Shown one piece after another: positions 2,977 to 49,846 of a stretch of DNA of 64,000 nucleotides. Each line of letters starts with the position of its first letter. Positions within the stretch are counted from its first letter, which is position 1. Both the position numbers and the translations under genes were made by a program. Under the pieces are notes generated by a model. That model did no database searches and was not told the DNA's origin. It saw only the letters and a list, made by a program, of their open reading frames with translations. The stretch lies in IMG/VR virus record IMGVR_UViG_3300025674_000014, one strand, 5' to 3'. Origin of the DNA: a virus. Its lineage: Duplodnaviria > Caudoviricetes.

Positions 2977-3003
2977 TTAAAATATTTAATACAGAAGCAT
3001 CAT

Positions 3004-6952: not shown

Positions 6953-6970
6953 AGCATCCTGTTATTATGT

Positions 6971-8497: not shown

Positions 8498-8531
8498 ATT
8501 TTATTTTATGCCAGGTATCGTTGATTTCAAC

Positions 8532-11500
8532 TTAGTTAATACATTTTACTTTATAATCAAACCATTCTTGATGTAAACGAACACAGTTAATGCAAGCTGA
8601 ATTATGAATACAAGCAGCATTATTAACATTAAGAAATGCAATTCCTACAAATTGTCTTGTTGAACCCCATAAATTTAAACAAGAATCATTAAAATCTAGC
8701 TGTTTACAAACGGTTACTACTTGATTAGTAAAAGTATTTGGCATGTTTGCGCCTATACTACACCATATTATTCCGTTACCAAAGCTAAATAAATAACATA
8801 CCGGGTAATTACTACTAGTGTTATTTCCATAAGATACATTTATTTTATAATATAAACAATCAATCATACTCATACAGTAATTAGAACTACAAACTGAACA
8901 TTTTACCATACATGCCTTATTTGCCATCATAGGAATGCAATTTGTACAACACATTGTATAATAGGCATACCACCCACCATCACTTCCCGGAAGACAAATA
9001 TTATGTACATATTGACCTCCGCATGTAAAACCACATGTGGTGTTTCTACAACAATAAGCTAATGAATAATTTTCACACCCTACATTTGCCAATATGTATT
9101 TACAACCGCAACCCCAACATAAACTAGTTGAATCATAACCGGCACAAAGATATTTGTCACACATATTATCTATATGATAATTACTCCACCAATTAGATTG
9201 CCATGCATAAATACATCTACCTGAATATCCGCAATCATAAAGATTAGCTAATGCACATAAATTACATGTACTACAAGCGGTATAAATAGCAGGCATCCAA
9301 GAATCATGTTGAGTATACCCAGACGGTTTTGGAGCACACCAACACCAATATAGAGGTGTACCTGAAGCTCGACAATTGTTTACGTAATAACTATAAGTAA
9401 AACAATTACTACTATCTGCCAACATATTTGTAGTTGCAAATGTCATAGCAGGGTTATATACTTCACAAGAATAACAAAATTTTATACATTGACCGGTAGT
9501 TAAAGTAGAATAATCTACAGAACATGTTATAGTGCTATATGAAGATACGTTAGAGTTAATAGTAGGGTAGTTATATGTAGCTTTAAATGTACCAGCGCTA
9601 CAAAAATAAGGGTCACACCCATATGTAATAAACCCGCCAAATGGAAAACATATTTTCCATGTCCATCCAAAAACACAAGAAGTGCTTATACATCTAACTT
9701 TATACCCGTAACCACTGGTTGGTGTACCCCAGGGTAATATATAGGTGTTAGAAGTATTACCATAATTGTCTGTTCTACTTGTCCACCAAGGGTGCGCTTT
9801 TGCTTGATTAAAGCATCTAAATCCTTGCGTACCTGTACATTTTGTTTCGGGCATTAAATTAGTACAAGCATAACTACCGCTGGTATAATTAGCACAGGTA
9901 TAGCTAGTTATTGTTGGACAAGTCGCGCCTGAACATATTAAATCAGTTACACTTGAACATTCATTAGGCACGGGAGGTGTGCTCGTAACTGTGGGTGTTC
10001 TTGTCTGTGTAGGTGTATGTGTACTTGTTCTGGTCGGCGTTCTCGTCTTGGATTCTGTAATAGACTTCGTTCTGGTTGGTGTTCTTGTCTTCGTTCTAGT
10101 ACGTGTAGGTGTATAGGTTGGTGTTCTTGTACGCGTAGGTGTTCTTGTTCTCGTGTTAGTAGGCGTTTGTGTACGCGTACGTGTGTAGGTTGGTGTTCTT
10201 GTACGTGTACGTGTACGTGTTTGGGTTGGTGTTCTCGTACGTGTACGTGAATGTGTAATAGATTTCGTTCTGGTTGGTGTTTGTGTACGTGTAGGTGTAC
10301 ATGTTCTCGTGCGTGTATAGGTTGGTGTTCTCGTACGTGTACGTGATTGTGTAATCGACTTCGTTCTGGTTGGTGTTCTCGTACGTGTAGGTGTTTGTGT
10401 ACGTGTACGTGTTTGGGTTGGTGTTCTCGTACGTGTACGTGATTGTGTAATCGACTTCGTTCTGGTTGGTGTTCTCGTACGTGTAGGCGTACATGTACGT
10501 GTTCTTGTTCTCGTACGTGTAGGCGACTGGGTTGGTGTTCTTGTACGTGTAGGTGTTTGTGTACGTGATCTTGTACGTGTACGTGTACGTGTAGCTGATT
10601 GAGTTGGTGTTCTTGTACGTGTAGGTGTTTGTGTACGTGTTTGGGTTGGTGTGCGCGTTCTAGTAGGTGTTTGTGTACGTGTCTTAGTTCTTGTTTGCGT
10701 TCTCGTACGTGTATAGGTTGGTGTTCTTGTTCTCGTACGTGTATATGTAGGAGTTTGTGTACGTGTATTTGTTGGTGTACGCGTACGTGATGCTGTACGT
10801 GTCGGTGTTTGTGAACGAGTAGGTGTTTGTGTACGTGTACGTGTTGCTGATCTGGTCGGTGTGCGTGTACGTGTACGTGTCTGTGTAGGTGTTTGTGTAC
10901 GTGTTTGTGTTCTCGTTCTACTTGGTGTAGGTGTTTGTGTTATTGATTTAGTACGTGTAACGGTTGGTGTTCTTGTACGTGTTACAGCTGGTGTTGCTGT
11001 TCTGGTAGGTGTTCTTGTACGCGTAGCTGTCTGAGATTTTGTTCTCGTTTGCGTAGCTGTACGTGTATTTGTTGGTGTTTGCGTACGTGTCGGTGTTTGT
11101 GTACGTGTCTTAGTTCTTGTTCTCGTACTCGTAGCTGTTCTCGTATTAGTAGCTGTCTGCGTATTAGATTTTGTTCTAGTAGCTGTTGGCGTTTGTGTAC
11201 GTGTCTTAGTAGCTGTTCTAGACTTAGTACGTGTTGGTGTTTGCGATCTCGTACGTGTATTGGTTGGTGTTTGCGTACGTGTAGCTGTTTGAGTGTTAGA
11301 TTTCGTTCTCGTCTGGGTTGGTGTTCTTGTACGCGTACGTGTAGATGTTTGTGTTGCTGTACGTGTTGATGTTGGTGTTTGTGTTCTGGATCTTGTACGT
11401 GTACGTGTCGGTGTATTTGATCTCGTACGCGTACGTGTAGCAGATTGTGTAGGTGTTTGTGTACGTGTCTTAGTTGACGTATTAGTAGCTGTCTGCGTTG

Positions 11501-14500
11501 CTGTCTTAGTGTTTGTTGGTGTTGGTGTTTCAGTACGTGTTCTAGTACGTGTTCTTGTGGGAGATTGTGTTCTCGTTGGCGATTGTGAACGTGTTCTTGT
11601 AGGTGTCTGTGTTCTTGTTCTTGTAGACGTTCTTGACTGTGTAGACGTTTTCGTCTTTGTAACTGTATTAGTACGTGTGTTTGTAGGAGTTTGTGTTCTT
11701 GTCTGCGTTGCTGTCTGCGTTGCTGTCTTAGTGTTTGTAGGTGTTTGTGAACGCGTACGTGTTACCGTTTCTGTTGCTGTTCTGGTAGACGTTCTTGTTT
11801 GTGTGGCTGTTCTTGTTCTCGTTGGCGTTTCTGTGCGTGTACGAGTTGGTGTACTACTACGTGTTTTAGTATTTGTAGCGGTTTGTGTGGTTGTTCTAGT
11901 GCTTGTCTTAGTAGGTGTATGTGTTCTAGTAGGTGTTTGTGTACGTGTTCTTGTATTAGTTTCGGTTCTTGTCTGCGTATTTGTTCTTGTAGATGTAGGT
12001 GTTTGTGTATATGTAGGTGTTGATGTTCTTGTATTTGTAGCGGTCTGCGTGTAAGTTGATGTAGATGTTCTTGTGTTAGTAGCAGTTTGGGTATTTGTTT
12101 TTGTTTGTGTTGGTGTTCTCGTTGATGTTTGAGTTGATGTTTTAGTAGATGTTCTTGTTTGTGTGGCTGTACGTGTGTTAGATTTCGTTCTCGTTTGTGT
12201 GCGTGAACGTGTTTGCGTAGCAGTTTGTGTTGCCGTACTTGTAGGTGTTTGTGTTCTTGTACGTGTACTAGTAGCGGTATTTGTAGGGGTTTGTGTTCTT
12301 GTACTTGTACTGGTTTTGGTATTTGTTGGTGTTTGTGTTCGCGTACGTGTATTTGTTGGCGTTTGTGTACGTGTTTCAGTTGGTGTTTGTGTACGCGTAC
12401 GTGTATTTGTTGCTGTTTGAGTAGGGGTTTGTGTTCTTGTTTGCGTTGGTGTCGGATAACGTGAAACAGTTGCAGTAGATGTTTGTGTGTTCGTTCTCGT
12501 CTGTGTAGATGTTCTCGTCTGCGTAGACGTTCTTGTCTGCGTAGATGTTCTTGTATTGGTTGGTGTTCTTGTACGTGTACGAGTGTTAGTTGCTGTTGGC
12601 GTTTGTGTACGTGTACGTGTTTGTGTATTTGTACGTGTATTTGTCGGTGTTTGTGTTCGTGTACGTGTACTAGTATTTGTAGGTGTTTGTGTGCGTGTAC
12701 GTGTTTCTGTTGGTGTAGGCGTTTGTGTTCTCGTTCTTGTCTGAGTAGCAGTTCTTGTCTGTGTTGATGTACGTGTGTTAGTAGCGGTTTGCGTAGACGT
12801 TTGCGTAACCGTTCTCGTATTAGTAGCTGTTTGAGTAGCTGTTTGTGATGACGTTCTTGTTTGTGTTGGTGTACTTGTAGCTGTTCTAGAAGCTGTCTGG
12901 GTAGGTGTTCTAGTACGTGTAGCTGTCTGGGTTGGTGTTCTAGTTTGGGTTGGTGTGCGTGTACGTGTTACGTCAGGTGTATCTGTTTGACTTGGTGTTC
13001 TCGTAAACGTAGGTGTTCTTGTTTGTGTTCCGGTCTGCGTTGATGTTGGTGTTTGTGTACGTGTACGTGTTTGTGTATTTGTTGGTGTTTGGGTGCGTGT
13101 ACGGGTTTGTGTACGTGTACGTGTATGTGTTGGTGTTTGCGTTCTTGTCTGCGTCGGTGTTTGTGTACGTGTACGTGTGTTAGTAGATGTTTGTGTATTT
13201 GTTTTTGTTCTTGTTTGAGTAGCTGTTCTTGTCTGCGTAGATGTTCTCGTCTGTGTTGGTGTTTGTGTTCTCGTCTGAGTCGGTGTTTGTGTACGTGTAC
13301 GTGTTTGTGTGTTTGTTCTTGTCTGTGTAGGTGTTTGTGTGCGTGTTCTTGTCTGCGTACGTGTACGTGTATTAGTAGCTGTTTGTGTGTTTGTTCTTGT
13401 CTGCGTAGATGTTCTCGTCTGCGTAGATGTTCTTGTCTGTGTTGGTGTTGGATAACGAGAAACCGTGCTCGTAGCTGTTCTGGATTGGGTAGCTGTTCTA
13501 GTTTGAGTATTTGTTCTCGTCTGGGTATTTGTTCTTGTTTGTGTTGGTGTCTGAGTACTTGTTCTTGTCTGAGTAGCTGTTCTTGTCTGCGTACGTGTAC
13601 GTGTTTGTGTTCTTGTCTGAGTAGCTGTTCTCGTCTGAGTAGCTGTTCTCGTTTGAGTAGCTGTTCTAGTATTAGTTGGTGTTTGTGTACGTGTTTGTGT
13701 AGCTGTTTGTGTGTTTGTTCTCGTTTGTGTTGCTGTTCTCGTTGGTGTTTGGGTACGTGTACGTGTACGTGTACGTGTTTGAGTAGGTGTTTGTGTTCTC
13801 GTTCTAGTGTTAGTAGGAGTTTGTGTTCTTGTTCTAGTTGATGTATTAGTAGCTGTTCTTGTTTGTGTAGATGTTCTTGTATTGGTTGGTGTTTGCGTTC
13901 TTGTAGGTGTTTGTGTTTGGCTTGCTGTTCTCGTACTTGTTGGTGTTTGTGTACGTGTACGTGTATTTGTAGGTGTTTGAGTTCTTGTTCTTGTCGGTGT
14001 TTGCGTTCTTGTTCTAGTATTTGTTGGTGTTTGCGTACGTGTACGTGTACGTGTATTGGTAGCTGTTCTTGTTTGTGTAGATGTTCTTGTTTGTGTCGGT
14101 GTTTGTGTTCTTGTTTCGGTAGCAGTTTGGGTTGGTGTCCTTGTCTGCGTAGCTGTTTGAGTAGGTGTTTGTGTTCTTGTTCTCGTTGGTGTTAATCTAG
14201 GTAAGTCAAATCTATGACGTAATGCTGAGTAACTAGCTTCTATTTGATTTTCAGTTAATGCATCGTTGTATACTTTAACGATAGCAATTTCACCGTTCAT
14301 ATCTCTAACTGAACCATAACTTTTACCAACGCTTAACAATGTTTCTGATGTATTTCTGCTAGAAGGTATCGAAACGGTACCTTCAAGATCAGCATTGAAA
14401 TACATTTTCATATTAGAGCTATCAACAGTTATTGCAAATTGGAACCAACCGGTTGATGTGGTAAGAGCTGTTGGCATTGTAATGGTGTAAGAAGAGCCAC

Positions 14501-14702
14501 CAAGTATTAAATTAGCATATAACTTATTGCCTACAGGTAATCCTGAACGCTCTTTTTGCACTAATAACCAATTGCTTGAATCCCCCACATAAGTAAACAT
14601 TACTTGAGTTTCATTTGATGTAAAAGAACTATCATCAAAATAAACCCATGAAATAATTGTAAAACTATCATTTAAAACAGGTAACGTATTTAAATTAGAA
14701 AC
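8532..14702 (-). CDS. Distal, frameshifted part of the giant TxT/LamG protein: rest of a LamG domain, ~1400 aa TxT tract, Cys-rich C-terminal domain
   Basis: The frame is open upstream of the ORF-track Met 14600 ([27 protein letters not shown]) and matches the internal paralog [27 protein letters not shown] near 32.2 kb. Confidence 0.85.
9978..14192 (-). repeat. Thr-x-Thr-x coding tract (~1400 aa), increasingly Arg-rich toward the C-terminus
   Basis: Thr at about every second residue; x is mostly Q/R/P/N/A/S; plus strand is almost pure G+T. Confidence 0.95.
10225..10487. repeat. 96-bp-period tandem repeat (32 aa unit containing TKSITQS)
   Basis: Exact 71-bp copies at 10321-10391 and 10417-10487; degenerate copy from 10225. 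Confidence 0.85.
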
Positions 14703-17700
14703 CGTTCTATATAATTAACCGCATCACCTGTAGAGGTTGGCCATACATAACTCTTAGGACTTGTTTGATTTAATTCTACATCACCTACTATTACACTATC
14801 AATGCTATTTGATGTAATATCACCTATTCCAGTAGCTGGATAAAACTCTCTAGATTGTGGTGTGAAATTACTTGTGTATCTAGCAGTACCAATTGTAAGT
14901 CTAAACTCATCTATATAACCAGTTAGTTTTGATGTACCGTCAGATTTTGATCCAATTATTAATTGACCACCTGGAGCCGTACCGGATATTGAAACGGTAG
15001 CTTCTTGTGTACCGTCAATGAATAATCTTGCAGTACTACTATCTCTTACAGCAGCTAAATGATACCAAGTGTTATTTGATAATGTTGAAGTTGAATATGT
15101 ATCAGCGCTTATTATACCACCAGAGAATAAAACTTTACCATTTGCTTCAACAGTTAATAATACCCCACCAGATCCACCACCTCTTGTATCAAAAATGTAC
15201 TGTCTACTACCTATAGAACTTACATAAACCCATGTTTCAAAAGTAAAGTCAGATGAACCTAAAGCTAACCCAGAAGAATAATTTAGGTAAGCTGTTCCAT
15301 CAAAATAAGCACTACTACCACCAAATTTAAATTGATCGGTACTAATTTCTGTATTTGTATTTGATGCTGTATTAGAAGCACTACTACTATCAGTGAACGT
15401 TGTAGAACCATCGGTTCCGTTCATATGTAATAGTAACTGAACGTCTGAATAATATGTATCCGAAAGATCTCCGGTTGTGGTTGTATTATCGGCATCGTAA
15501 TATGCTATCAAATCACTTTGAATTGCAGATGTCGCTGTTTGCGTTGGTGTCTGTGTAGCTGTTCTTGTTTGTGTAGGTGTCTGTGTACTTGTTCTTGTTT
15601 GTGTTGGTGTCTGTGATCTGGTTTGTGTAGATGTTCTAGTCTGGGTAGCTGTTGCTGTTTGGCTAGCTGTTCTAGTTTGTGTTCTTGTTCTGGTGTTAGT
15701 AGCAGTTTGTGTAGACGTTCTTGTCTGTGTACTTGTTCTTGTACTTGTAGGTGTTTGTGTTGTTGTTCTAGTAGATGTATTTGTAGGTGTTTGTGTTGGT
15801 GTTTCTGTTCTAGTTCTTGTTCTTGTAGGTGTAAAGGTAGGTGTTCTGGATTGCGTAGGTGTATTTGTTTGACTAGATGTTCTTGTTTGTGTTCTTGTTC
15901 TTGTACTGGTTACTGTTTGGGTGTTTGTTCTTGTTTCAGTTGGTGTTCTTGTATTGGTAGGCGACTGGGTTGGTGTTTGTGTTGATGTTGGTGTATTAGT
16001 AGGTGTTGAAGTATTTGTTCTTGTATTAGATGGTGTTCTTGTTTGTGTAGGTTGTGGTGATCTTGTTCTAGTAACTGTTTGGGTGTTTGTTCTAGTTACA
16101 GTTGATGTTTGTGTAGGGGTTTGTGTTCTAGTTCTAGTATTAGTAGGTGTAGGTGATAACTGTGGTAAGTTAAAACGTTTAAATGTGGTTTCGTAATTTA
16201 ACTGAACCTGGTATAACGTCAATGCTGTGTCATAAACTTTTAATGATGCATATTTACCATCCATAAACCCGCTCAAACCATTATAGCTTGCCATTCTAGG
16301 TCTTGGATTTCCGTTATTCAAGTTACTAACATCTCCTTGGAAGTCAATTAATGTTGAATGATCTTGATAACCATCAACATAAATTCTCATATCATTAAAC
16401 TTACCAGGGTAGAATGTTGTTGTAGGTCTTCTAAAGTTACCGGTGTAACGAGCAATACCTTTAGTTATTCTAACATCCTGTAAATAACCGTTCATGTATT
16501 GAGATCTATTTTGACTACCAATATAAAGATCTCTTGTACTGTTATATACTGAGCTTGTACCTACATCTGTATTACTAGTTGATATACCATCAACGTAAAC
16601 TCTTAATGAAGTACCATTTCTAACTAATGCAACATGGTGCCATGCATTATCGTTAACAGCAATTGTGCTTGTATTTGTATATGTCCAACCTGTACCAGTA
16701 GTACTAATTGCACCAACTGCATAACCACCATTACTATCAGATAACGCTCCTAAGTAGAATGCTGAATTAGAAGATGCTCCAAATGACGATTGACTTGCTA
16801 TAATCTGATAATTACCAGTAGAAGGCCCACCTGGTGATTTCATCCAAGCTTCAATAGTGAAATCTCCATCACCAAAATGCCAATCATCGCTATCACTATA
16901 TAATAAATAGTCACCGCTACCGTCGAAGTAACCACTACTTCCACCCCACTTATAATCGTTAGTAAGAATTTCAGTATTACCTGCAACATCTGATGGTGTT
17001 CTTGCAGCGCTACTACTATCGGTAAATGTAGTAGATTCATTCGCACCGTTCATATGCAATAACAACTTAACATTCGGGTAATATGAATCTGTAGGTACAT
17101 TAACATCACCACTTAAGGTTGTGTAAATATGATGCCATTTACCATCTGTTATATTAGTTGTACCTGTTGCACTTAAAGCACCTGCTGTTGCTTCAGGTAA
17201 TGTATAAACTTGCAATGTACCAGATAATGGATCAACATTCATCTGGAAATTATCAATTGTATCTCCGGTAGGTCCATCAAATTTGAAAATGTTCTGACTA
17301 ATACCATTACTCAATGATTTAGAATTAGATTGAACCCACATACCTACACTGAATGAACTTAATGAATTATATCCGCTTAATTCAGCATAATCACCATGCC
17401 CGGACATCGCAACATAATAAGATGATAAACTATCCGCAACATTGTAATTAATTGATGGTGAATATACATAACTTGGGAACATATCTTGAGGAGTATCAAA
17501 ATCTGCTGTATATCTTGCAACATCTCTTGTTACTCTCAACCCGTTCATCCATCCATCTAAACTTGCACCTTGACCAGTTTCACATGCAACGTATATATAA
17601 TTACCGTTAGTAACACTGTCACCCCAAGTAGTTTCAGCTATCTTAGTGCCATTAACAAATAATCTCATTACTCCAGATTCTCTAGAAACTGCTAAATGAT

Positions 17701-20700
17701 ACCACTTATCAATTTCCATTCCGTGAGTACCGTTAATTCTTTGAGTATCGGTATAATGTACAATTAATTTTGTCTGACCTATTAAGAAACCAAAACCATT
17801 TCCAGATCCAGGATCGCCACTAGTGATAATCATTTGATGATTTTGCCAATTAGTTGGCCAAGAATCACTTGTAGGCATACTTCTTAATTTAACCCAGGAC
17901 TCAATAGTAAAGTCGTTGGTATAAAATCTCATATCATAACCAGCATATGCTGGTTTCATAATACCATCAACGTTACCGGAGCGATTAAATTCACCACTAC
18001 TACTACCAAATTTGTATTCAGATGTAGTAATAAATGCATCTCCTAAAGTAATAAATTCAGCATTAGCGCTACTACTATCAACAAATGTTGTTTGACCGCT
18101 TAATCCTTGGAAGTTCAATACAATGGCATTATAATCTGAATATTCGTCTCTATTTGCTATAGTAAGATCATTATTATTTGAGCTAATGTCCTGCCATAGA
18201 TAAGGTGATTGACCTGTTGATGTATTCGTTGGTGTGGGAGTTACTAAAGGAGCTAATGTTTTATTAAACTTAGATAATAAGTAGTTATTCATTCTAGCTA
18301 CTTCATAATCTGTTAATGCGGTACCATGAACTGCTACTGCGCCAACTTTACCATAAAATCTATTACCTTCACCTTGATCGGAGAATATATTAAAATTATG
18401 TCCAGGGTAAAATCTATAACCGTATGGATCGGTTATATCTATGTTAAATGCTTGAACACCGTTGATAAAACCAGACATTTTATCTTTTGTTCTTCTGTAA
18501 GTAATAACATCAAATCTACCTTCACTTACAGGTAACTTAGAGAATCCCCAACTACCACTTAATGGATATACATTATCACCATGTCCGATACCAATGTTAT
18601 AATATCTATGATATGCATCATAACTACCGTTACCCATGTTCATAGATATACCCATATCAGGGTAATTGGTATCAAACAAGTACATTTCCCTAGTTTCTTC
18701 ATTAGGCTGCATTGCTAATGTAATGGTCCAATCAGATGCAGTAAGAGGTTGGAATGTATTGTTATACCCGTAACCATTTTGCCATTCTAAATGTCTTGGA
18801 TTAATATAATTATCATCAACTAATCTATAACCGGCCATTATAGTTTCGTAATGATTATCAGATAAATCATACCAACGATTACCACCACTTGCAGGATAAC
18901 TAAATGTATTTGTTGAATCTAAGAATAAGCATAAGTTTCTTGTTGAAACACATGCACCTTGAGTTACTGTAGGTGTGTTTGTAGGCGTTACAGGTGGTGT
19001 ACATACTGATAATGTATATCTACTTGATAATGCTGCGTAATCAGCGCAAACTTGTTCGTGAGATAAACCACATGTTTGATACCATCTAAATGTTGCAATA
19101 CTACCCTTCCAACGATAATCGTTCCTTTCTTGACGATAACCACCTAACATAGGCAATAAATTACAAGAAGATAATGAAAGTATATTAGAAGTATTTTCTG
19201 CTGATAATCCAGGCACACCATTTAAATAAGCATAACTTACATTATTCTTTCTTACAAATGCTACATGACTCCATTCACATAATGTTAAAGCACTTAATGG
19301 GTAAGTCCAAACATCACCACCTGTTGAATATAAACCATTAGTGTAAAATCTAGCTCTACACTGATCATCAACTAACCACCAAAGTTGGTAATCATGGCCA
19401 TAAGTACCTATTCTTTTCGTATTACCTAAAATTGTAGAATTAACCCTAGTAGGGCAAATCCAAGCTGTTGCTGAAAAGTCGCCGGATAAAGTTTCAAAAG
19501 CATTAGGGTTGTTAAAATAAACTGCTCCAGAACAACTGCAACGTTCATCCCAACATAAGGTACCACCACCATCATATTCGCAATTGCTATACCAAGGGTA
19601 GTTGCTTATTGGGTAACATGTACCGTATGGGCAACAAAATTTATGACAACATTTCTGTGAATAAAGTGTCAAGTCATTACAAAATAACGTACCATCGTTA
19701 CCATGATTAGTTAAGTCAACAATATTACTTTCGGTACACCCGTAAGCTGATCTTGTATAATTAGGATATGATTGTTGATTATAAAAATCGTAACTAATTG
19801 TTAAACAATCCGGTGCTGCTACATATTGTGTAGCAGTAGGTGTAGGGGTAACACCAATAGTTGGTGAACTACTTCTTGTTGGAGTATAACTTCTAGTTCT
19901 AGTTACGGTAGATGTTTGTGTTGGTGTTTGTGTATTAGTAGGAGCAGGTGTAGCTTGATACCTAGCAGACAAACCTTTGAAGTCAGAAATTACTTCATCT
20001 CTTGTCATACCAAACCCACAATAAACTCTATATTGAGCTAAATTACAAAAAGCTCCAAGTGTGTATGGACGACCGTAATCATAGATATTGTAACAATTAT
20101 TTACAGGGCAGCAAAATAGATCACCTGCATTTGAATAAATTGCAATTTCATTAGCTCTTCTAGAAACATTAACATAATGGAATGAACTTAATGTAAGCTG
20201 TTGTGTACATAAAGTAGGTAATCCCTGACCACTAACTATATATCTACAATCGCTACCTCTCCAATATATATCAAACGGGTTGTTATTCCATGAATACCTA
20301 TCTACTACGCTTTGATCACCGCTTGTTGAAACGGGTCTTGCCCAGAATGCTACGGTAAAATCTTCGCAGAAGAATGTTAAATCTGTATTTTCAGGTAAAC
20401 ACATACCACTTCTGAATGAAAGTGTACCCTGATATGGGTCTGCACAATAACAAGAATTGTATACAGTAAGTCTACCATGATTATTTCTTGGTGATAAATC
20501 TTCAACATAAACATATTGACCATTCTCACCATCTCTTTCAGGTAATGTGCAATATGGGTAAGATTGTCCTTGATAAAAATCTAAGTGTAATACTAATTTA
20601 TCACTCTTTAAAAAGCAACCTGCAGGCGTAGTGGTAGGTGATAACCCTATAGTATTTGTTCTTGTTGGTGTGTTAGATGATGTTGGTGTAGGGGTTACTA

Positions 20701-26700: not shown

Positions 26701-29700
26701 TAGATGCTCTAGTTGTAGAAACGTGTGTTATCCAATTGTATATAGAGTTGAAATAAATCCAATATTCAAGAGTAAAATCATCAGTACCAAAAGCCAAAGC
26801 TGATGATTGCCAAGATAGAAAATCTTCTGACCCTTGAAAATAACCACTAGTACCTTGAAATTTATACTCGTCATCTGTAATCATTGCATTACCATTTGTG
26901 GTAATATTGTTATCAGAAGCTGATAAACTTGAATCGGTAAAGGTTTGTGATCCACTTAATCCATTCATATGTAAGAGTAAACTTACATTTTCATAATACG
27001 GATCTACAGGTATATCATTATAACCTAAAGTTGCATAAACTTGATGCCAATTACCATCAGTCAAATCTGTATAACCGTCAGCACTTAATGTATCGGCACC
27101 GGATAACAGAGTATTGTATGCTTGTAATGTACCGGTGTCAACATTAATACCTAACTGAAAGTTATCGGCATTATCTCCCGAAGGACCGTCTAACATAAAC
27201 AATTTAGGACTTACCCCTCCGTCAATAGCAGAACTATCTGTTTTAATCCACATACCAACAGTAAATGCACTAAGGGTAGTTCCAACATTAAGATTATTAT
27301 TATCTAGAACTATATCATTTACTGTGTAATATGATGATAATGTATCAGCTATATTATAAGATGGTTCAGATAAATTGTAATTAGCAAACGTAGCATTTGG
27401 TGGTGTAAAATCATCAGTGTAACGAGCTATACCTTTTGTAATTCTTAAATCTTGGATATAACCGTCCATTGAATCGGAATTTTGAAAGAAGTTAGATGTA
27501 CCAATTATACTGCTTGAAACACCATTAAACAATGTACCAGAATAAGTTGCAGAGTTAAGTTCTGTACCATCTCTAAATACCTTAAAGGTATTACCGCTTC
27601 TAGTAGCGGCAACATGATACCAAGTATTAGTACTCCAACCTGAAGTATTACCTTGACTTGCATTAACTAAGAACGACCCAGAATCAACAGATAAAAATCT
27701 TAAACCTTCTTCCCAGTGAAGGGCAAAAACCGTTACGTTACTGCTGTTATCTTGTTCACTATAATCTGTTAATATATAATGACTCTCATCACTTGGTAAA
27801 CTGTCAAATCTAACCCAAGCTTCAATTGTAAAATCATCACTACCAAAATTTGCAGCTGTGTTAGGTACAGTTAAATAACTTGAACCGGAGCCGTTAAAAT
27901 AACCACTACTACCGCCCCATTTATACTGATCCGTACTTGTTACTGCACTACCGTATGTTGTAACGGTATTAACTGAGCTACTACTATCTGTAAACGTTGT
28001 ACCATCATTGTTACCATTCATATGTAATAACAATGAAACGTTAGGATAATATGTATCTCCTGATGCAAATTTAAAGTCATTTACATTAGTTGTGAGATCA
28101 TACCAGGTATTAGAATCTGCAGGATAAAATCCAGTAGAAGGTGTTCTTGTTGTTGTAGCTGTTTGTGTGACTTGAGGTGAACCAACACAATATCTATTTT
28201 TATTGGAATTATATAAATTGTTTATATCTTGTTGAGATAATGTGTCATTAAAGACTTTAGCTTGACCAATTTTACCGGTAAATAAATTACATGATGAATT
28301 CCAAGGATCTCTACCAATTGCAAAACAACCATGCGATGCATAATCAAGGAACGGTGTAATGGAATTGCTATTAACCATATCACCGTTATAATACAATTTT
28401 GTACCATCAGTTGGTGAATATGTAAATGATAACTGATTCCATTCACCTGTAGATAAACAACCTGAGTTATAAACACAGCTGTCATTAACACCGCCTGTAC
28501 CATATTGAACTTGGGCATATAAACAACTACCGCTGTTTGTACCTAATGCAGCTTGTCTGTTACCAGAATTAGCTGCATCAGTTATCACGTCAGCATCGGA
28601 TAAACTATCAAAATTAACCCAAGCTACATAAGTTAAGTTACAACCGCTTGAAAAATCTTTTAATATGGAATCACCAACCATACCATCACCACTACTGAAA
28701 CAGAAGTATTTGATACCACAACTGGTTGTATATGTTGGCCCGCAAATTGATAAATTATAACTATTAGCTAAATCATACCAAGTTGTACCACTTGTATAAC
28801 TAGAGGTATTATCAGCATCCCAATATGCTACTAAATTAGTAGAATATGGTGGTGTATTAGTAACGGTAGGTGTATTTGTTTGTGTTGGAGTTGGTGTTGA
28901 TACAAATGCGCTTCTAATACTTGATGCATCTTGATTAGCAATTAATCCGCATGTTTGACCATGGGTTGATGTATTTGTTGGGGTTTGGGTTGATGTTCTT
29001 GTATAAGTTGGTGTAGCTGTTCTAGTAGCACTTGGTGTGTAAGTTGGTGTTCTTGTTCTAGTAGCGGTATTGGTAGCTGTTCTAGTACTTGTTCTTGTTT
29101 GGGTACTTGTTCTTGTTGATGTTTGCGTAGGAGTTTGTGTTCTTGTTCTAGTAGCGGTATTGGTAGCTGTTCGTGTAGCTGTTTCAGTGGATGTTCTTGT
29201 TCTAGTATTAGTTGGTGTTCTAGATTGTGTAGGGGTAGGTGTTGATGTAGCGGTTTGGGTTGGTGTTCTTGACTGGGTAGGTGTTCTTGTTCTTGTACTA
29301 CCAGGTGTTCCTGATCTTGTGCTTGTACTAGTAACTGTTCGTGTACTAGTTACGGTGTTTGTAGCCGTTTGTGTTGGTGTTTGAGTTGGTGTTTGTGTTC
29401 TTGTCCTTGTCCTTGTAGGGGTGTTAGTTTGTGTATTTGTTCTGGTTTGAGTTGATGTTCTTGTTGATGTTGCTGTCTGTGTACTTGTTCTTGTAGCTGT
29501 TTGTGTAGATGTTTTGGTGTTAGTAGGTGTTTGTGTAGATGTTCTAGTTTGAGAAGCTGTTCTAGTTTGGGTAGATGTTCTAGTAGAGGTAGGTGTTTGA
29601 GTACAAGTAGCTGTTTGAGTAGATGTTCTTGTATTAGTAGCTGTTTGAGTAGATGTTCTGGTTTGTGTATTGGTTCTTGTATTAGTAGCTGTAGCAGTTG

Positions 29701-32700
29701 GTGTTTGAGTTGGAGATTTAGAACGTGTGACGGTTGCAGTAGCTGTCTGAGTAGCTGTTCTTGATTGAGTTCTAGTTCTGGTAGCCGTTTCAGTAACTGT
29801 AGGTGTCCTAGTTTGTGTTTGCGTAGCTGTTGGTGATGCCCCTTGAGTGGCTGTTCTAGTAGATGTTTGAGTTGGTGTTTGAGAACGGGTACGTGTATTT
29901 GTTCTTGTTTGTGTTGATGTCTGTGTAGATGTTCTTGTATTTGTAGGTGTTTGTGTTCCGGTAGTGGTTGTCGTATTAGTAGCTGTTCTTGTCTGGGTTG
30001 GTGTATAAGTTGGTGTATTAGTTCTTGTCTGAGTTACTGTTGGGGTTTGTGTAGATGTTTGTGTGGATGTTGGTGTAGATGTTACCGTCTGTGATGGTGT
30101 CTGGGTTGGTGTAAATGTTCTTGTCTTTGTATTAGTAGGCGTTTGTGTTGATGTTGGTGTGCTTGTTACTGTATTGGTAGCAGTTTGGGTAGGTGTTTGT
30201 GATCTTGTTTGTGTTGGTGTAGCTGTTTGTGAATGTGTTCTAGTTTGTGTTGGTGTATTTGTTGATGTTGCTGTTTGAGTTGGTGTTTCAGTTCTGGTAG
30301 CTGTTCTTGTCTGGGTAGGTGTTTGTGTTGGTGACTGAGTAGCTGTTAAAGTAGCTGTTGGTGTGTTTGTCTGAGAAGACGTTACTGTTTGGGTAGGCGT
30401 TGGTGTTTGTGAACTTGTTTGTGTTGGTGTTCTTGTTGCAGTTACATCAGGTGTATCTGTCTGGCTAGGGGTTCTTGTAAATGTAGCTGTTCTAGTGTAA
30501 GTAGGTGTTTGTGTTCTAGTATTTGTTCTTGTTTGGGTAGGGGTTTGTGTAGGTGATTGAGTAGCTGTTTGTGTTACTGTACCTGTTGGTGTTTGGGTTG
30601 ACGTTCTAGTTTGGCTAGCTGTTCTAGTGGTTGTTCTAGTAGCGGATTGGGTAGGTGTTCTTGTTCTTGTTGCTGTATTAGTTGGTGTGTAAGTTGGTGT
30701 TGATGTAGATGTTTGACTTCTTGACTTAGTAGGTGTTTTGGTTTGTGTAGCTGTTGGTGTTTGGGTTTGTGTACCTGTTCTTGTACTTGTTGGTGTTTGG
30801 GTTTGAGTAGATGTTTTAGTATTAGTAACGGTAGCTGTTCTTGTCTGTGTTGGTGTACCTGTTCTTGTAGATGTTTGTGTAGCTGTTCTTGTACCGGTAA
30901 TGGTAGCTGTAACCGTTGGTGTTTGTGTTTGAGTAGATGTTCTTGTTGCTGTTGGTTCAGCTGTTTGTGTTTGTGTTGTTGTTCTTGTCTGAGTTTGTGA
31001 TCTAGTTTGTGTTGATGTTCTTGTACTTGTAGCTGTTGCCGTAACAGTTGATGTACTGGTTGGTGTTCTGGTTTGTGTATTTGTTCTAGTTTGTGTAGGT
31101 GTTTGTGTTCTTGTAACAGATGCTGTTGGTGTTTGTGTTTCTGTTCTTGTCTGTGTTGAAGTTCTTGTTACAGTAGATGTAGCTGTTTGTGTTGCTGTCT
31201 GAGTTGCAGTTGCTTCTGCTGTAGGTGTATTAGTAGCTGTTCTTGTATATGTCGGTGTTGCTGTTTGAGTTGGTGTTTGAGTTGCAGTAGCTGTACTAGT
31301 TTTAGTTCTTGTATTAGTAGCTGTTTGTGTAGCTGATCTAGTCTGGGTAGCTGTTCTTGTTTGAGTGGGTGTTGCAGAGTTTGTTGCTGTAACTGTTGGT
31401 GTAGCTGTATTAGTAGCTGTCTTTGTCTTACTAGCTGTTCTTGTTTGGCTAGCTGTTCTGGTTTGTGTATTAGTTCTTGTTGATGTAGCTGTTTGCGTGT
31501 ATGTTGGTGTATTAGTTCTTGTTCTTGTTCTGGTTGATGTAACTGTAGGTGTAATTGTTCTTGTTTGTGTAGGTGTTTGAGTTGCGGTAGATGTTACAGT
31601 TGATGTTTGAGTAGGTGTTTGTGTAACTGTTGATGTTGCTGTTGGTGTTTGAGTTGCTGTTCTGGTTTGGGTAGGTGTTTGTGTACCTGTTTGTGTATTT
31701 GTTCTAGTCTGTGTAGATGTTCTAGTAACTGAAGGTGTTGGTGTTAATTCAGGTAAGTTAAATCTTTGTCTTAAACTATTATAACTTGATTCAATTTCAT
31801 TCTCAGTTAATGCTGAATCGTATAGTTTTACGATAGCAATATCTCCAAACATGTCAGCTTCTAAAGTTTCACTGGTATTAAAGTTTCTACCAACCGCAAA
31901 AGCAGGCTGTGTGGTACTTCTTGAAGATGGTACGGTTAAAGTACTACCTAACTGGTCAGCATTAAAATATAATTTTAATTCATTATTTGATAATGTTAAT
32001 GCAACTTGAAACCATCCAGTTGATGATGATAAAGCTGGTAAACTACCATCAATACCTATAGTATAACTTGTACCACCTGATCTTAATTGACCAAATAACC
32101 TATTAGGTGCTGCTGAATAACCACTTCTGACTTTGTTAATTTTTATTAAATTACTATCATCAACATATAAGTACATTATCTGATGATATCTATTAGTAGA
32201 AAATGAATCATCATCATATCTAACCCAAGCTAAAACCGTAATATTATCATTAAGAACGGGTAATGTACTTAAATTAGAAACACTTTGTAAATAGTTTACA
32301 CCACCAAAAGCTTGCCAAGTAGGCCAATTATAATATTTCGGTTGAGTTGCTTGATATAAATCAACGTCGCCAACTATTACACTATCAATGCTATTTGATG
32401 TAATATCATCTACACCAGTAGCTGGATAAAATTCTAAAGATTGCGGTGTAAATGCAGCGTCATTTATAAACGGATATTTAGTGTTGTTATAATCAGCTTC
32501 AATTTCACTAGCAGTTAAAGCTTTATCTAGATAAAATCTTGCAACTGATAAATCTCCGTTCATATATGAACTATTACCTGACATAATAGTCCAATTAGCT
32601 CCTGATGTAATATCTCCACCAGGTCTATTACTAGCAGATGTAGCTTCTAATACACCATCTACATAAATTCTTAACTTAGTAGAATCCGCAACATAAGCTA

Positions 32701-35700
32701 TATGATGCCAAGTGTCATCATTATAAGTATCAGAAGTTCTAGCTAATCTTTCTGTACCTGATGAATTTCTTTCCCAGAAATCTAGCTTACCACCATTAGT
32801 AGCATCTCCAAGCCCCCTCATACCTACCATAAAGTATGAAGAAGTACCGTTATAGTCGGTAGCTAAAGGTTTTGTATAACTATGTGCACTTTGAGTAGAA
32901 TCTAATTTTACCCAGAAAACAAATGAATATTGTTTATTATCTAAGGTAAAACTTCTACCTGTTGCTATATTATCATTACTACCATCAAATGATAAGTAAG
33001 CTGGTGAATCTGGACTATAAGTTGCTCCATTAATAGTAGCATTATACGCTCCAGATGTTAAATCATATAAAGTTGAAGTTAATGCACGCCTACTACCAGC
33101 ATTAATATTATAATTAAATTCTAAATCTGAAGTTAATGAAGTTTCAGTACCCGTTTCGTATCTTCCAACTCCTTTAGTAACTCTAAATTCATCAATATAA
33201 CCTTGTAATTGATAATTATCACCAATTTTAGATCCTGCAATGTTTAACGTTGTACTTGATCCATTATCAATAGAACCAGTATAACTGCTGTTATTAGCCT
33301 CCATTACACCATCAACAAACAAATAAAATACACTATCTTTTCTTTGAAGTATTACATTATACCAAGTATTTGTACTTACTGAAGTGGTTGAAGCTAATAC
33401 AGGTGCCCCATCATTCTTTAAATTATAAGCCCAAAATGTAAATAAATTTTGCCTATTCGGGTGGTCAGCGTAAAGTACCCATTTATCACTACCCCAATTT
33501 CCGTCAACATAATTTTTAGTTATAGTAGTACCGCTACTACCGTGAGCGGTAATATAAACCCAAGTTTCAATAGTAAAATCACCTGAACCGAATGCTGTAC
33601 TAGAACTTGTACTATAACTTAACCAATCATTATTACCGTCAAAGTAAGCACTACTACCACCAAACTTAAATTGATCGGTACTAATTTGAGCATTACCGTT
33701 AACAGAAGCTGTTCTATTAGCACTACTACTATCAGTAAATGTGGTAGAACCGTCAGCTCCATTCATATGTAACAGTAACGAAGTGTCGCTATAATAGGTA
33801 TCCGAAAGATCTCCGGTAGTGGTTTGATTAGCAGCATCGTAATATGCTATCAAATTACTGGTTATTGGCCCGGTAGCTGTTTGTGTTGGTGTATGAGTAG
33901 CTGTTCTGGTTTGGGTAGGGGTATTTGTTGCTGTTCTTGTATTAGTTGGTGTATTGGTTTGGCTAGCTGTTCTTGTTTGTGTATTTGTTCTTGTAGCCGT
34001 AGCAGATACTGTTGATGTAGGTGTAGACGTTTTTGTAGCTGTTTGTGTTGGTGTTACTGCTCTAGTAGCTGTTTGGGTAGCTGTTCTAGTATGGGTAGCT
34101 GTTCTTGTATAAGTTGGGGTTGATGTTTGTGATCTTGTTCTTGTTTGAGTACTAGTTACCGTTGAAGTAGCAGTCTGTGTTGATGTTTGAGTTGGTGTTG
34201 ACGTTTGGGTATTTGTTTTTGTCTGTGTAGCTGTTCTTGTAGCTGTATTTGTAGCAGTCTGAGTAGCTGTTCTGGTTTGTGTAGGTGTTTGTGTTCTGGT
34301 TTGGCTAGCTGTACGTGTTTGTGTTCTAGTTCTGGTAGATGTAGCTGTTTGTGTTGCTGTAGGTGTAGATGTTTGTGTTCTTGTATTAGTAGCCGTTCTT
34401 GTCTGTGTTGGTGTAGATGTTTGGGTTGGTGTTCTGGTTCTTGTAACATCTGGTGTATCTGTCTGACTAGGTGTTCTAGTAAAAGTCGATGTTCTTGTAT
34501 TGGTAGGTGTAGGTGTTGATGTACTAGTAGGGGTTTGGGTAGGTGTTTCAGTTCTAGTTACTGTTGATGTATTTGTTCTAGTTTGGGTTGGTGTTTGGGT
34601 AGCTGTTGGGGTTGCTGTTTGACTTGCTGTACGGGTCTGTGTTCTTGTTCTTGTATTAGTAGCAGTCTGGGTTGGGGTTTGAGTAGATGTTTGAGTTGCT
34701 GTAGCTGTTTGGCTTGCTGTTCTTGTAGCTGTTTGACTTGCTGTTCTTGTAGGTGTTTGGGTTTGGGTTGCTGTTGCAGATTGGGTAGCTGTTCTTGTTT
34801 TTGTAGGTGTTTGTGTTCTGGTTTCAGTAGCTGTTTGAGTAGATGTTCTGGTTTGCGTTCTTGTTGGTGTTTGGGTTGAAGTTCTTGTTGCGGTAACTGT
34901 AGCTGTTTGACTTGCTGTTCTGGTCTGTGTTCTTGTTCTAGTAGATGTTGATGTTTGTGTTGCTGTTGGTGTTGCTGTCTGACTAGCTGTTCTTGTCTGT
35001 GTATGAGTCTGGGTAGCTGTTCTTGTTACCGTCTCCGTTGCTGTTCTAGTTTGGGTAGGGGTTTGGGTTGCTGTCTGAGTTGCTGATTGGGTAGCAGTCT
35101 GACTAGCTGTACGTGTTTGTGTTCTTGTTCTTGTTGATGTAGAAGTTCTGGTCTGGGTAGGTGTTCTGGTTTGGGTTGCTGTAGGTGTTTGAGTTGATGT
35201 TTGAGTAGGTGTTTGTGATCTTGTTCTTGTAACTGTTTCAGTTGCTGTTCTTGTCTGGGTAGGTGTTTGTGTTCTAGTATTAGTAGCAGTCTGTGTTGGT
35301 GTCTGTGTAACTGTACTTGTTACTGTTGGTGTTTGAGTAGCTGTTTGAGTTGCTGTATTAGTAGCTGTTTGGGTAGGGGTTTGTGTTTGGCTAGCTGTTC
35401 TTGTTTGAGTAGGGGTTTGAGTTTGGCTAGCTGTTCTAGTTACTGTAGCTGTTTGAGTACCGGTTTGTGTATAAGTTTGTGTATTTGTTCTAGTCTGGGT
35501 AGATGTTCTAGTAGCCGTATTAGTTGCTGTTTGTGTGGGTGTTTGAGTTTGGCTAGCTGTTCTGGTTTGTGTAGGTGTTTGTGTTTGTGTTGCTGTTCTA
35601 GTATTGGTTGGTGTTTGCGTTCTTGTTCTAGTAGATGTTTGTGTAGCTGTTTGGGTGGGTGTTTGTGTCTGAGTTGAAGTTCTGGTTTGGGTTGGTGTAG

Positions 35701-38700
35701 ATGTTTGTGTAGATGTTTGTGTATTTGTTCTAGTTTGGGTAGGTGTGCTTGTTGATGTTTGGGTAGACGTTCTTGTTTGGGTAGGGGTATTAGTAGCAGT
35801 CTGAGTTGCTGTTTGTGTCGGGGTTTGTGTTGGTGTCTGAGATGCTGTTCTAGTTACAGTAGCTGTTGATGTTTGAGTTGATGTTCTTGTCTGAGTAGGT
35901 GTTTGTGTTTGTGTAGATGTTTGGGTTGGGGTTCTTGTTCTCGTTACATCAGGTGTATCTGTTTGACTTGGCGTTCTTGTAAAAGTTGATGTTCTTGTCT
36001 GTGTAGGTGTTTGTGTAGAAGATTGGGTAGCTGTTTGTGTCGGGGTTTGTGTAGGTGTTTGAGTACTTGTTGCAGTAGCTGTTTGTGTATTTGTTCTGGT
36101 TTGGGTAGGTGTTTGTGTTCTAGTATTAGTAGCAGTCTGTGTTGGTGTTTGTGTCTGTGTAGGTGTTTGTGATCTGGTCTGTGTAGATGTTTGCGTATTT
36201 GTTCTTGTTTGGGTTGGTGTTGGGTATCTAGAAACGGTAGATGTTTGAGTATTTGTTCTAGTTTGGGTTGCTGTTTGAGATGCTGTTCTAGATGCAGTAC
36301 GGGTAGCTGTTTGTGTATTTGTTCTTGTCTGGGTAGGAGTTTGTGTTCTCGTTTCAGTAGCAGTTTGAGTAGCAGATCTAGTTTGTGTTGGTGTTTGAGT
36401 CGGTGTGGATGTTCGTGTTTGAGTAGCTGTTCTAGTTTGGGTAGGTGTTTGTGATCTAGTTTGTGTTGCTGTTTGAGTTGAAGTTCTTGTCTGAGTAGGT
36501 GTTTGTGATCTAGTTTGGGTAGCAGTTTGTGTTGCAGATCTAGTTTGGGTTGGTGTCTGGGTAGGTGTTTCTGTTCTTGTCTGTGTTGCTGTTCTAGTAG
36601 ATGTTCTTGTTTGTGTAGAAGATCTTGTCTGTGTTGGTGTGTTAGTTGAAGTTTGGGTTGCTGTATTAGTAGCTGTTTGAGTTGGTGTTTGAGATCTTGT
36701 CGGTGTTTGGGTTTGTGTAGATGTTCTAGTATTAGTAGCAGTTTGGGTAGTTGTTTGAGTAGCTGTTGGTGTAGGTGTTTGTGTTCTCGTTCTAGTAGAT
36801 GTATTGGTAGCTGTTTGTGTAGATGTTCTTGTCTGTGTTGGTGTGCTTGTAGATGTTTGTGTAGCTGTAGGTGATGGGGTTTGAGTAGCTGTTCTAGTTA
36901 CAGTAGATGTTGGCGTTCTTGTACTTGTAACTGTTTGGCTAGCTGTTCTTGTTTGGGTAGGTGTTCTGGTAGATGTAATTGTAGCTGTTTGAGTAGCTGT
37001 TCTTGTCTGTGTTGGTGTCTGGGTTTGGGTAGCTGTTCTTGTTGCTGTATTAGTAGCTGTTTGAGTAGGTGTTTGGGTTTGAGTAGCTGTTCTAGTTTGT
37101 GTAGCTGTTCTAGAACTTGTTCTCGTTCTAGTTTGGGTTGGTGTTGATGTTTGGGTATTTGTTCTTGTCTGGGTAGGTGTTTGAGTTCTAGTAGATGTAG
37201 ATGTTTGTGTATTTGTTCTTGTTTGAGTAGCTGTTCTTGTCTGTGTAGGTGTTTGTGTGCTTGTATTGGTAGCTGTTTGTGTTGCTGTTCTAGATTGTGT
37301 TCTAGTCTGGGTTTGAGTAGCTGTTCTTGTAGCTGTAGCAGATCTAGTCTGGGTCGGTGTTCTTGTTGAAGTGTTTGTAGCTGTCTGAGATTTTGTTCTT
37401 GTAACCGTTTGTGTAGGTGTTTGTGTTGATGTTCTAGTTACAGTTGATGTAGCTGTTTGAGTAGCTGTTCTAGACTGGGTAGGTGTCGGTGTTTGTGTTG
37501 ATGATTGGGTTGGTGTTCTAGTTCTAGTAACATCAGGGGTGTCTGTTTGACTTGGCGTTCTTGTAAAAGTAGGTGTTCTGGTTTGAGTAGGTGTTTGTGT
37601 TCTAGTATTGGTAACGGTTTGGGTAGCCGTCTGTGTAGGTGTTTGAGTTTGGCTAGCAGTTCTTGTTGATGTAACTGATTGTGTAGGTGTTTGTGTTCTT
37701 GTCTGTGTAGCTGTTCTTGTCTGACTAGCTGTTCTTGTAACTGTAGCTGTCTGAGTTGGTGTATTAGTAGCTGTTTGTGTAGCTGTTCTACTAGCTGTTC
37801 TAGTAACTGTAGGGGTTTGAGTTGATGTTTTAGTTTGTGTTGGTGTTTGAGTTCTAGTAACGGAAACTGTATTAGTAGCTGTTTTTGTAACTGTAGCTGT
37901 CTGAGTTGGGGTATTGGTAGCTGTCTGAGTTGGTGTAGATGTTCTTGTCTGAGTAGCTGTTCTTGTAACTGTAGGTGTTTGTGTACTTGTTCTTGTTAAT
38001 GTGCTAGTAGCTGTTCTAGTGGCCGTAACCGTTGGAGATGCTGTTCTGCTTACGGTTGATGTTACTGTAGCTGTACGTGTAACTGTGACTGTAGGTGTTT
38101 GTGTTGCCGTTCTTGTAATTGTTCTAGTAGGTGTTCTTGTTGGTGTTGGATCAATCTTGTTAATAACTTCTAATGGTAAGAAATTAGTAGAAGGTGATGA
38201 AAGGGCTTGTTGTTTAAAAAATGAAATATAAGACGATTGCTGCACGAATTCGGTAAAACCTTGTAAGAAAGAAGGTAATCCAGGAACGTAAGTCTCAAAT
38301 ACAGGGCTTAATTGATTTGTAGGTCTTAATCTGAATACTCTTTCTGTAGCTGATGTTCTGTTAAAAACAGTAAATGCTTCATCAGTCATACCAGCACCTG
38401 TTGCTAAATTCATATTAACAGCTGATGTATATAAGAACCAAGATAAACCTGATCTCATATATTGAGCTGATAATGCATTAGCGCCTAACGGTGGTATGAA
38501 ACCACTTACAGAGAGTGGTAACACACTAAGTGAATCAACATACACCGCATATGTACTACCAGGCACAAATTGAGTGAAACCTTGCAAGAAGTCAGGTAAC
38601 CCAGGTGTGTAAGTAATACGAGATGGTGAATTAGGATTGTCAGAAGCAAATATTCTATCTACGTAATCGCCAGATGATAGTATCGTGCTACTAACATTTA

Positions 38701-38755
38701 GCCTATTTTCTTCGATAAACTGTAATATTTGCCCGGAAAACGTGATTAAGCCCAT
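14690..38755 (-). CDS. Giant putative virion fibre/adhesin (8021 aa as assembled; 10,074 aa if joined to 8532-14702): TxT tracts, many LamG/ConA domains, two glycine-rich domains
   Basis: Repeated [22 protein letters not shown] and WYDL/WHH..LYVDG..GDI LamG modules; [15 protein letters not shown] glycine-rich modules; no signal peptide; TAAATA 9 nt upstream. Confidence 0.85.
15530..16157 (-). repeat. TxT coding tract (~210 aa)
   Basis: Alternating Thr pattern in the translation. Confidence 0.9.
28963..31745 (-). repeat. TxT coding tract (~930 aa)
   Basis: Alternating Thr pattern in the translation. Confidence 0.9.
33872..38148 (-). repeat. TxT coding tract (~1420 aa), Gln/Ala-rich
   Basis: Alternating Thr pattern; three [13 protein letters not shown] motifs about 1.5 kb apart. 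Confidence 0.9.
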
Positions 38756-41725: not shown

Positions 41726-41749
41726 AATTATATTTATTAAATTATTGGC

Positions 41750-42664: not shown

Positions 42665-42693
42665 TAATTTAATTTAGCGAGTATCTATATAAA

Positions 42694-45135: not shown

Positions 45136-45174
45136 AATCTAATATATTTAATCTACTATAATATATTTAAAGAT

Positions 45175-49437: not shown

Positions 49438-49445
49438 ATATTTAT

Positions 49446-49796: not shown

Positions 49797-49803
49797 CAAT
49801 AAA

Positions 49804-49831
49804 ATTATAATCGTTGTTCTCCTCAAGTCAA
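49804..49831 (-). promoter_or_regulatory. sigma70-type promoter, back-to-back with the late promoter
   Basis: TTGACT-16 nt-TATAAT, 7 nt before ATG 49796. Confidence 0.65.
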
Positions 49832-49832
49832 C

Positions 49833-49840: not shown

Positions 49841-49846
49841 TTTCAA

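Follow-up and report, generated by a model that had tools for sequence, protein, structure and literature searches.

We report that an IMG/VR virus record assigned to the Duplodnaviria (Caudoviricetes), IMGVR_UViG_3300025674_000014, carries on its minus strand a giant gene that is interrupted in this record by a single missing base. The stretch of DNA that we analysed is 64,000 nucleotides (nt) long and is henceforth referred to as the window. We are highly confident that the natural gene is one uninterrupted open reading frame (ORF) of ~10,000 codons that is conventionally translated, without frameshifting, and that Met 14600 does not begin a second gene. The broken frame reflects either an artefact or an allele private to this record, and it does not mark a site of recoding. 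The gene and the break have the following coordinates.

8532..38755, minus strand: the whole giant gene, one ORF of 10,074 codons plus the stop once the missing base is counted
14704..14705, minus strand: site of the one-base deletion, private to the record; others read GAA TCG GTT (E S V), the window GAA CG GTT

The two parts of the gene lie in adjoining frames. The ATG-started ORF at 14690..38755 encodes 8021 aa and has the terminus ...NYIERFLI*. The -1 frame has a stop four codons before the break and then 2,056 open codons up to the stop at 8532-8534; the ATG-delimited ORF in this frame, at 8532..14600 on the minus strand, encodes 2022 aa. The overlap of the two frames is ~9 codons long (AAT TAT ATA GAA CGG TTT CTA ATT TAA). 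Because the 2,056-codon open frame begins exactly at the stop of the 8,021-codon frame, in DNA of 36% G+C, chance is excluded as the origin of this arrangement. The span 8532..38755 comprises 30,224 nt (remainder 2 on division by three), and one additional base gives 10,075 codons including the stop. The full product is 10,074 residues long, with X placed at the break. This two-frame layout and the count of 10,075 codons had been proposed in an earlier reading of the sequence alone (henceforth the original prediction), and both were reproduced by our frame translation and length count.

We compared the break with other assemblies. Seven other contigs were retrieved by exact look-up of the downstream 508-aa transferase, and four of them reach the deletion site (L027-L030). 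At this site the window reads GAACGGTT, where these four assemblies and the Logan contigs of three runs from three studies read GAA TCG GTT. All four contigs that reach the site, from ENA ERZ27275011, ERZ27275004 and ERZ27275014 and from JGI 3300007539 (Ga0099849_1000103), contain the T and read GAATCGGTT. The missing base is thus a T on the coding strand (an A on the plus strand, between 14704 and 14705) in the context GAA-T-CG, and not a base of a short A-run as had been suggested. Its restoration gives the Ser codon TCG and the peptide NYIESVSNL; the paralog of the broken module, whose motif is at residue 2154 (window 32296-32246), has the same Ser. The original prediction had expected NYIE[T/S]VSNL upon addition of one base, and the natural sequences agree with the Ser alternative. 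It had also named comparison with related contigs as a check, and every contig that crosses the site carries the base.

The same comparison speaks to the quality of the record. The JGI contig (L029) aligns to window 18496..5591 with 99.89% identity over 12,907 nt, with 13 mismatches and the missing base as the sole gap. Other contigs align with zero gaps to window 51725-37465, 47375-36338 and 8533-1321 (14.3, 11.0 and 7.2 kb). We detected no further indel outside the linker repeats in the ~45 kb of the window that were compared with other assemblies. Judged by these alignments, the window is an accurate record that carries one private indel.

We also aligned the Logan contigs of four public runs to window 14150-15560. 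Run X1 is an aquatic metagenome from 2017 and is marked as a possible source of the window DNA, X5 is a lagoon sample from 2023 and X16 is a seawater sample from 2025; the contigs of the fourth run, X15, do not cover the break site. All crossing contigs have the extra A behind plus-strand position 14704, with depths of 20/20 in X1, 5.5/5.5 in X5 and 16.9/16.9 in X16, where the support comes from two contigs. The diverged X16 strain also has the substitution 14703 C>A (TCG>TCT), a change that is silent in the restored frame alone.

We consider it probable that the deletion is a consensus or sequencing error of the record. This explanation is favoured because the possible-source run has the T at depth 20, because the deletion form is absent from all seven other data sets examined (three Logan runs and four assemblies), and because the 6.2 kb downstream of the break are undecayed, with domain parts that are 100% identical to intact copies. 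The same three observations count against a rare, probably defective allele that truncates the protein in a phage sub-population, which we consider unlikely. In such phages the protein would stop after 8,021 aa and would lack its last LamG sandwich, the spacer of 1,400 residues and the Cys-rich tip. The otherwise very accurate sequence of the window speaks for the allele in that it argues against a generally error-prone record, and sequencing indels usually arise in homopolymers, which GAATCGG is not. A search of a run index with a deletion-specific 60-mer, in which all 31-mers span the deletion, listed no run, which again counts against the allele; with two words sampled, this is a weak search.

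We note three points that weigh against our reading of the break. Logan contigs drop rare variants, contigs in general cannot show minor ones, and the comparison is one contig alignment only, so a deletion allele carried by a minority of the phages could escape it. Run X1 is marked as a "possible" source of the window only. The three ENA assemblies perhaps stem from one study and would then not be fully independent.

A complete copy of the gene is available in one assembly. In the ENA contig k141_316624 (50,358 bp), the gene has both ends within the contig, and one gene call of 10,042 aa covers it, which bears out the expectation that an intact phage protein of ~10,074 aa exists. From overlapping high-scoring segment pairs, we located an in-frame length difference of 96 nt (32 codons) within 10296-10845, in the C-terminal Thr spacer, where L027 and L030 are shorter than the window and L029. 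This one linker indel accounts for the whole length difference (10,074 - 32 = 10,042), and the remaining ~20 kb upstream must therefore match the window in length, with the frame open. The 96-nt difference itself is either a real polymorphism like a variable number of tandem repeats or the collapse of a repeat in assembly.

The start codon at 38755 is also called in five further ENA contigs (L034-L038). All five stop inside the first Thr spacer (window 36338-37465), which indicates that short-read assemblers fail on this gene. Two points weigh against an intact frame throughout. The middle 18 kb of the gene are without a base-by-base comparison, and intactness there is derived from the 10,042-aa call and the length bookkeeping. 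Furthermore, linker lengths are uncertain in short-read assemblies of such repeats.

We assessed whether the protein is continuous across the break, using the natural read-through translated from L027 and L029. The read-through aligns with residues 2104-2345, its closest paralog in the same protein, with 47% identity and without gaps across the break. It matches Laminin_G_3 (1e-17), and a match to phrog_8510, annotated as "virion structural protein", spans the break (module residues 10-218, E 1e-9). We built an AlphaFold model of the junction module on an alignment of 35 LamG units. The sandwich is modelled with a predicted local distance difference test score (pLDDT) of 76-95 and has ten strands, which begin from residue 67, and the break is at residue 53 in a conserved low-confidence lead-in. 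Foldseek compared the model with pentraxins, CBM40 and other ConA-like jelly rolls at a probability of 1.00 and a TM of 0.5-0.6. The predicted fold is a generic ConA-like/pentraxin jelly roll, a two-sheet beta-sandwich, and according to the model the deletion parts the lead-in of the LamG module from its sandwich. The break had been described as being in the middle of a LamG domain; it is instead at the N-terminal edge, ~5-14 residues before the first confident strand.

These results bear on two ways in which the record could be read literally. Two genuine adjacent genes, one of 8,021 aa and one of 2,022 aa starting from Met 14600, are highly improbable. An ATG does exist at 14600, yet it corresponds to residue 88 of the model, inside the second strand of the LamG sandwich, and no Shine-Dalgarno-like sequence was found ahead of it. 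The variants at 14661, 14685 and 14703, between the break and Met 14600, are in third positions and synonymous in the downstream frame but change amino acids in the upstream frame. Gene callers, moreover, give one product on intact contigs.

Programmed -1 ribosomal frameshifting or transcriptional slippage, with an 8,021-aa and a 10,07x-aa product made in a set ratio, is just as improbable. The overlap of only ~9 codons and the -1 position of the downstream frame provide the geometry that such a signal needs. Against this, reading the nine frame-0 codons of the overlap directly, we found no X XXY YYZ heptamer and no A/T run of six or more, the longest homopolymer being TTT; the original prediction had likewise seen no canonical XXXYYYZ slippery heptamer. 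All near-identical and slightly diverged copies are single-frame, so there is nothing to recode. Of the three readings first offered for the break (assembly error, truncating allele or recoding), recoding is therefore not supported, having neither a slippery site nor two-frame relatives, and the other two stand with error as the probable and the allele as the unlikely one.

We divided the restored protein into parts by composition segmentation, Pfam and an iterated profile. From the N-terminus to the C-terminus these are:

38135..38755, minus strand: N-terminal unique domain, 207 aa, with an internal duplication of a ...PGLP.FLQGFT.F... motif (from sequence)
33875..38134, minus strand: (Thr-X)n spacer 1, 1,420 residues; Thr register 659 vs 1
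31727..33856, minus strand: LamG triple module, aa 1634-2343; Laminin_G_3 1.8e-48, 3 stretches
28967..31726, minus strand: (Thr-X)n spacer 2, 920 residues (composition segmentation)
26123..28966, minus strand: LamG array, aa 3264-4211; Laminin_G_3 2.9e-60, 5 stretches
24971..25840, minus strand: Gly_rich_2 domain 1, aa 4306-4595, 31% Gly; PF21722 36.8 bits (cut-off 24.3), phrog_2295 8e-29
22808..23605, minus strand: Gly_rich_2 domain 2, aa 5051-5316; PF21722 62.6 bits (cut-off 24.3)
19928..22669, minus strand: Cys-containing modules, aa 5363-6276, partly divergent LamG; one Laminin_G_3 stretch
16151..19861, minus strand: LamG array, aa 6299-7535; Laminin_G_3 1.4e-61, 5 stretches
14705..15514, minus strand: LamG module and conserved lead-in (FTPQS.EFYPATG...NYIE) up to the break (Pfam, read-through comparison)
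14181..14702, minus strand: beta-sandwich of the LamG module severed by the deletion (Laminin_G_3 1e-17, AlphaFold model, phrog_8510)
9981..14180, minus strand: (Thr-X)n spacer, 1,400 residues; Thr register 657 vs 1
8535..9980, minus strand: C-terminal Cys-rich orphan domain, 482 aa, 11% Cys (composition)

The iterated profile identified 19 LamG/ConA-like units, comprising 18 in the 8,021-aa part and the junction unit. Laminin_G_3 (PF13385) scores range from 31.6 to 207.5 bits in seven segments (cut-off 27.6), and the broken module has its closest paralog in the last unit of the triple module (aa 2104-2345). The protein contains ten (Thr-X)n blocks of 22-1,420 residues each (4,398 residues in total) and 2,629 Thr in all. 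The non-Thr positions of the spacers are mostly Q, R, A, S and P. Common Ser/Thr-rich linkers keep a far looser register than these tracts, and a Thr face on one side only would be compatible with a beta-like or extended conformation.

The ends of the protein and part of its middle gave few matches. The N-terminal 207-aa domain, which we presume to be the attachment end, has no Pfam or PHROG match and no homolog among proteins of 4.4-14 kaa; its single-sequence AlphaFold model was unusable (pLDDT 33). The C-terminal Cys-rich domain, presumed to be the distal tip, has no Pfam or PHROG match either. IMG/VR peptide patterns and ESM Atlas features gave nothing usable for it, and an exhaustive HMMER search of 1.84 billion cluster representatives recovered only its own fragment. 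No Pfam family was found for aa 5360-5630 and no PHROG match for the Cys-containing modules.

We annotated the genes on both sides of the giant gene.

6971..8497, minus strand: PF11397 gene (GT60-type polypeptide GlcNAc-transferase-like), 34 nt past the giant stop; 3.7e-65, DSH motif
5600..6952, minus strand: second PF11397 gene; 1.9e-69, DSH motif
3004..5607, minus strand: FkbM-methyltransferase/HtrL_YibB fusion gene (Pfam)
39083-41725, 42694-45135 and 45175-49437, minus strand: three large proteins of 880, 813 and 1,420 aa, each phrog_15511 (unknown function)
49847-50476, plus strand: protein of 209 aa with an Mtd_N domain (major tropism determinant N-terminal), between the fibre block and the lysozyme gene
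51140-52027, minus strand: phage lysozyme with a LysM domain, upstream of the phrog_15511 genes
56545-57309, minus strand: GT11-like (fucosyltransferase family) protein (domain match)
59891-60724, minus strand: further glycosyltransferase (domain match)

The two PF11397 genes score 221 and 235 bits against a cut-off of 21. DSH is present in both proteins as a putative metal-binding motif of the DxD/DxH type. Beyond these two genes, the window is rich in sugar-handling genes. The three phrog_15511 proteins match neither a Pfam family nor, in tblastn, any deposited phage, and PHROG gave no match for the genes that follow the glycosylation block of L027. Megablast searches of INPHARED with window 13900-15900 and 39000-52000 and a tblastn search with the 1,420-aa neighbour returned no match. 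Near-identical DNA occurs in runs from 15 studies of aquatic, freshwater, lagoon, marsh, marine and seawater metagenomes dated 2017-2025. The lineage is thus both widely distributed and persistent, over a range of salinities.

We compared the giant protein with known systems. With tblastn, the LamG modules match 419 phage records, mostly Synechococcus and Prochlorococcus phages. The hits are annotated as "virion structural protein", "baseplate wedge subunit" and "tail protein" and share 25-33% identity, and the homology is in the LamG modules only; phrog_8510 and phrog_6011 also match these modules. Among these relatives are the LamG proteins of T4-like cyanophages (Kyanoviridae), for example Cyanophage S-RIM32 gp045 (YP_009301713.1) and those of Syn1 and S-RIM44, which share the Laminin_G_3/ConA-like modules and resemble the giant protein in being large, co-oriented, late-type products. 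In tblastn they cover 82-83% of the junction module pair with 25-28% identity. They are, however, only ~1,100-1,400 aa long, seven- to nine-fold smaller than the giant, and we know of no GT60 genes beside them. From IMG/VR, a junction-side peptide pattern retrieved only LamG relatives with ≤43% identity, and none of the 26 IMG/VR LamG relatives that were read has (Thr-X)n tracts. A middle-domain query against metagenome contigs found nothing.

Giant proteins from metagenomes have the same pair of LamG and Gly_rich_2 (PF21722) domains in very long arrays: P0006 (6,834 aa), P0007 (7,260 aa), P0009 (7,247 aa), P0008 and P0010. They match the LamG array of the window with E values of 1e-97 to 1e-119 and have 13-20 LamG units each. 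These proteins, of 4.5-7.3 kaa, are encoded on contigs of 48-424 kb that may belong to large phages. Thr-rich windows make up 0-1% of the residues in these metagenome giants, whereas they make up 38-68% here. The largest LamG relative among the matches listed in a search of 5.8 billion proteins is 7,436 aa long, and the giant exceeds it.

We scanned viral contigs for (Thr-X)n tracts using a pattern of fourteen ACNNNN units. The scan recovered at least 120 stretches, and in 78 of the 80 loci read the tract is in an open frame; by themselves, such tracts are no rarity among viral contigs. A GT60 homolog was present within the fetched DNA at only three of the 80 Thr-X loci; L061 is a locus with GT60 homologs near a Thr-X tract. 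The locus L081 (IMGVR_UViG_3300009183_000106, 1511-8862) encodes a strictly alternating (Thr-X)n protein of 1,526 aa with small Cys-rich domains, followed by two transferases in the same gene order as in the window (Thr-protein, transferase, transferase). Its transferases match those of the window in phmmer with E values of 1e-111 and 1e-144. The L081 protein differs from the giant in lacking a LamG array and in being about one seventh as large. Its C-terminal domain is phrog_15511, a family represented in the window by three separate proteins encoded upstream of the giant gene and not by the giant itself.

Homologs of the transferases occur in 4 of 50,697 cultured or deposited phage records, namely the jumbo phages XacN1, Xoo-sp13, CM1 and RAS14 of Xanthomonas/Stenotrophomonas. 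No Thr-X protein was found beside the GT60 homolog of XacN1. We tried XacN1 ORF325 (3,313 aa), near this homolog, as an analog and rejected it, because it lacks a Thr-X tract and resembles neither LamG nor Gly-rich sequences. Eukaryotic mucin-type O-GlcNAc systems use GT60 polypeptide alpha-GlcNAc-transferases of Pfam PF11397, as in Dictyostelium and Trypanosoma cruzi. They are like the window in that Thr-rich tandem-repeat substrates occur together with PF11397 enzymes, and unlike it in that the predicted enzymes here are phage-encoded and would act in the bacterial cytoplasm. Phage tail assembly chaperones of the lambda gpG/gpGT type use a programmed -1 frameshift. There, as here, two reading frames of a phage late gene overlap and the downstream one is the -1 frame. 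This candidate too was rejected, as the slippery heptamer is missing and every other copy has a single frame.

Taken by its domains, the product is predicted to be a LamG-bearing phage structural protein, extreme in size and design. We propose that it would form a very long flexible fibre. Inside the infected cell, the two GT60-type transferases encoded directly downstream may O-glycosylate its Thr tracts, and the methyltransferase/HtrL fusion perhaps also acts on these tracts. The outcome would be stiff mucin-like stalks presenting many lectin-like modules, which could provide low-affinity multivalent binding to host-surface or environmental glycans. In a back-of-envelope calculation, the spacers alone would measure ~1.1-1.5 micrometres if extended at 0.25-0.35 nm per residue. 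We give this glycosylated mucin-like long-fibre model as a whole about an even chance of being correct. More tentatively, the protein may be the backbone of a phage-made "glycocalyx" of mucin-like stalks that reach micrometre length, carry at every second position a Thr glycosylated by the phage-encoded GT60 enzymes and display ~19 lectin modules, and it may be among the largest proteins of bacterial viruses. In the literature we found no statement that ranks phage protein sizes and no description of phage mucin-like fibres, and we therefore do not claim "largest" as a fact.

Several points weigh against a glycosylated virion fibre. The presence of the protein in the virion is predicted on indirect grounds, from distant homology and neighbouring genes; the N- and C-terminal domains are without detectable relatives; and the glycosylation of the fibre is a prediction made from the genes. 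The protein could instead be non-structural, as a secreted or lysis-released matrix or adhesin protein or as a decoy, which we regard as doubtful. This alternative gains from an N-terminal domain that matches no known attachment domain and from a size beyond that of any protein known on T4-like particles. It is at odds with the matches of the LamG modules to PHROG and GenBank families annotated as virion structural, with neighbours that include the large phrog_15511 proteins, the Mtd_N-domain protein and the lysozyme, and with the first residues of the giant protein, in which no signal peptide is evident (by eye only).

For annotation, the record as it stands suggests either a pair of proteins or recoding, and both are wrong: the gene has one product of ~10,000 residues. 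Such genes are probably under-counted, since short-read assemblies break inside Thr tracts. This aquatic phage, found in samples from estuaries, lagoons and the sea, spends 30 kb on one protein. If the fibre model is true, the gene and its transferases would parallel, in a bacterial virus, both the mucin-type O-glycosylation of eukaryotes and the glycosylated fibrils that giant viruses carry. They would then provide a concrete case for phage-encoded mucin-type glycosylation and for the possible use of long glycosylated lectin fibres by phages in first contact with hosts or particles.

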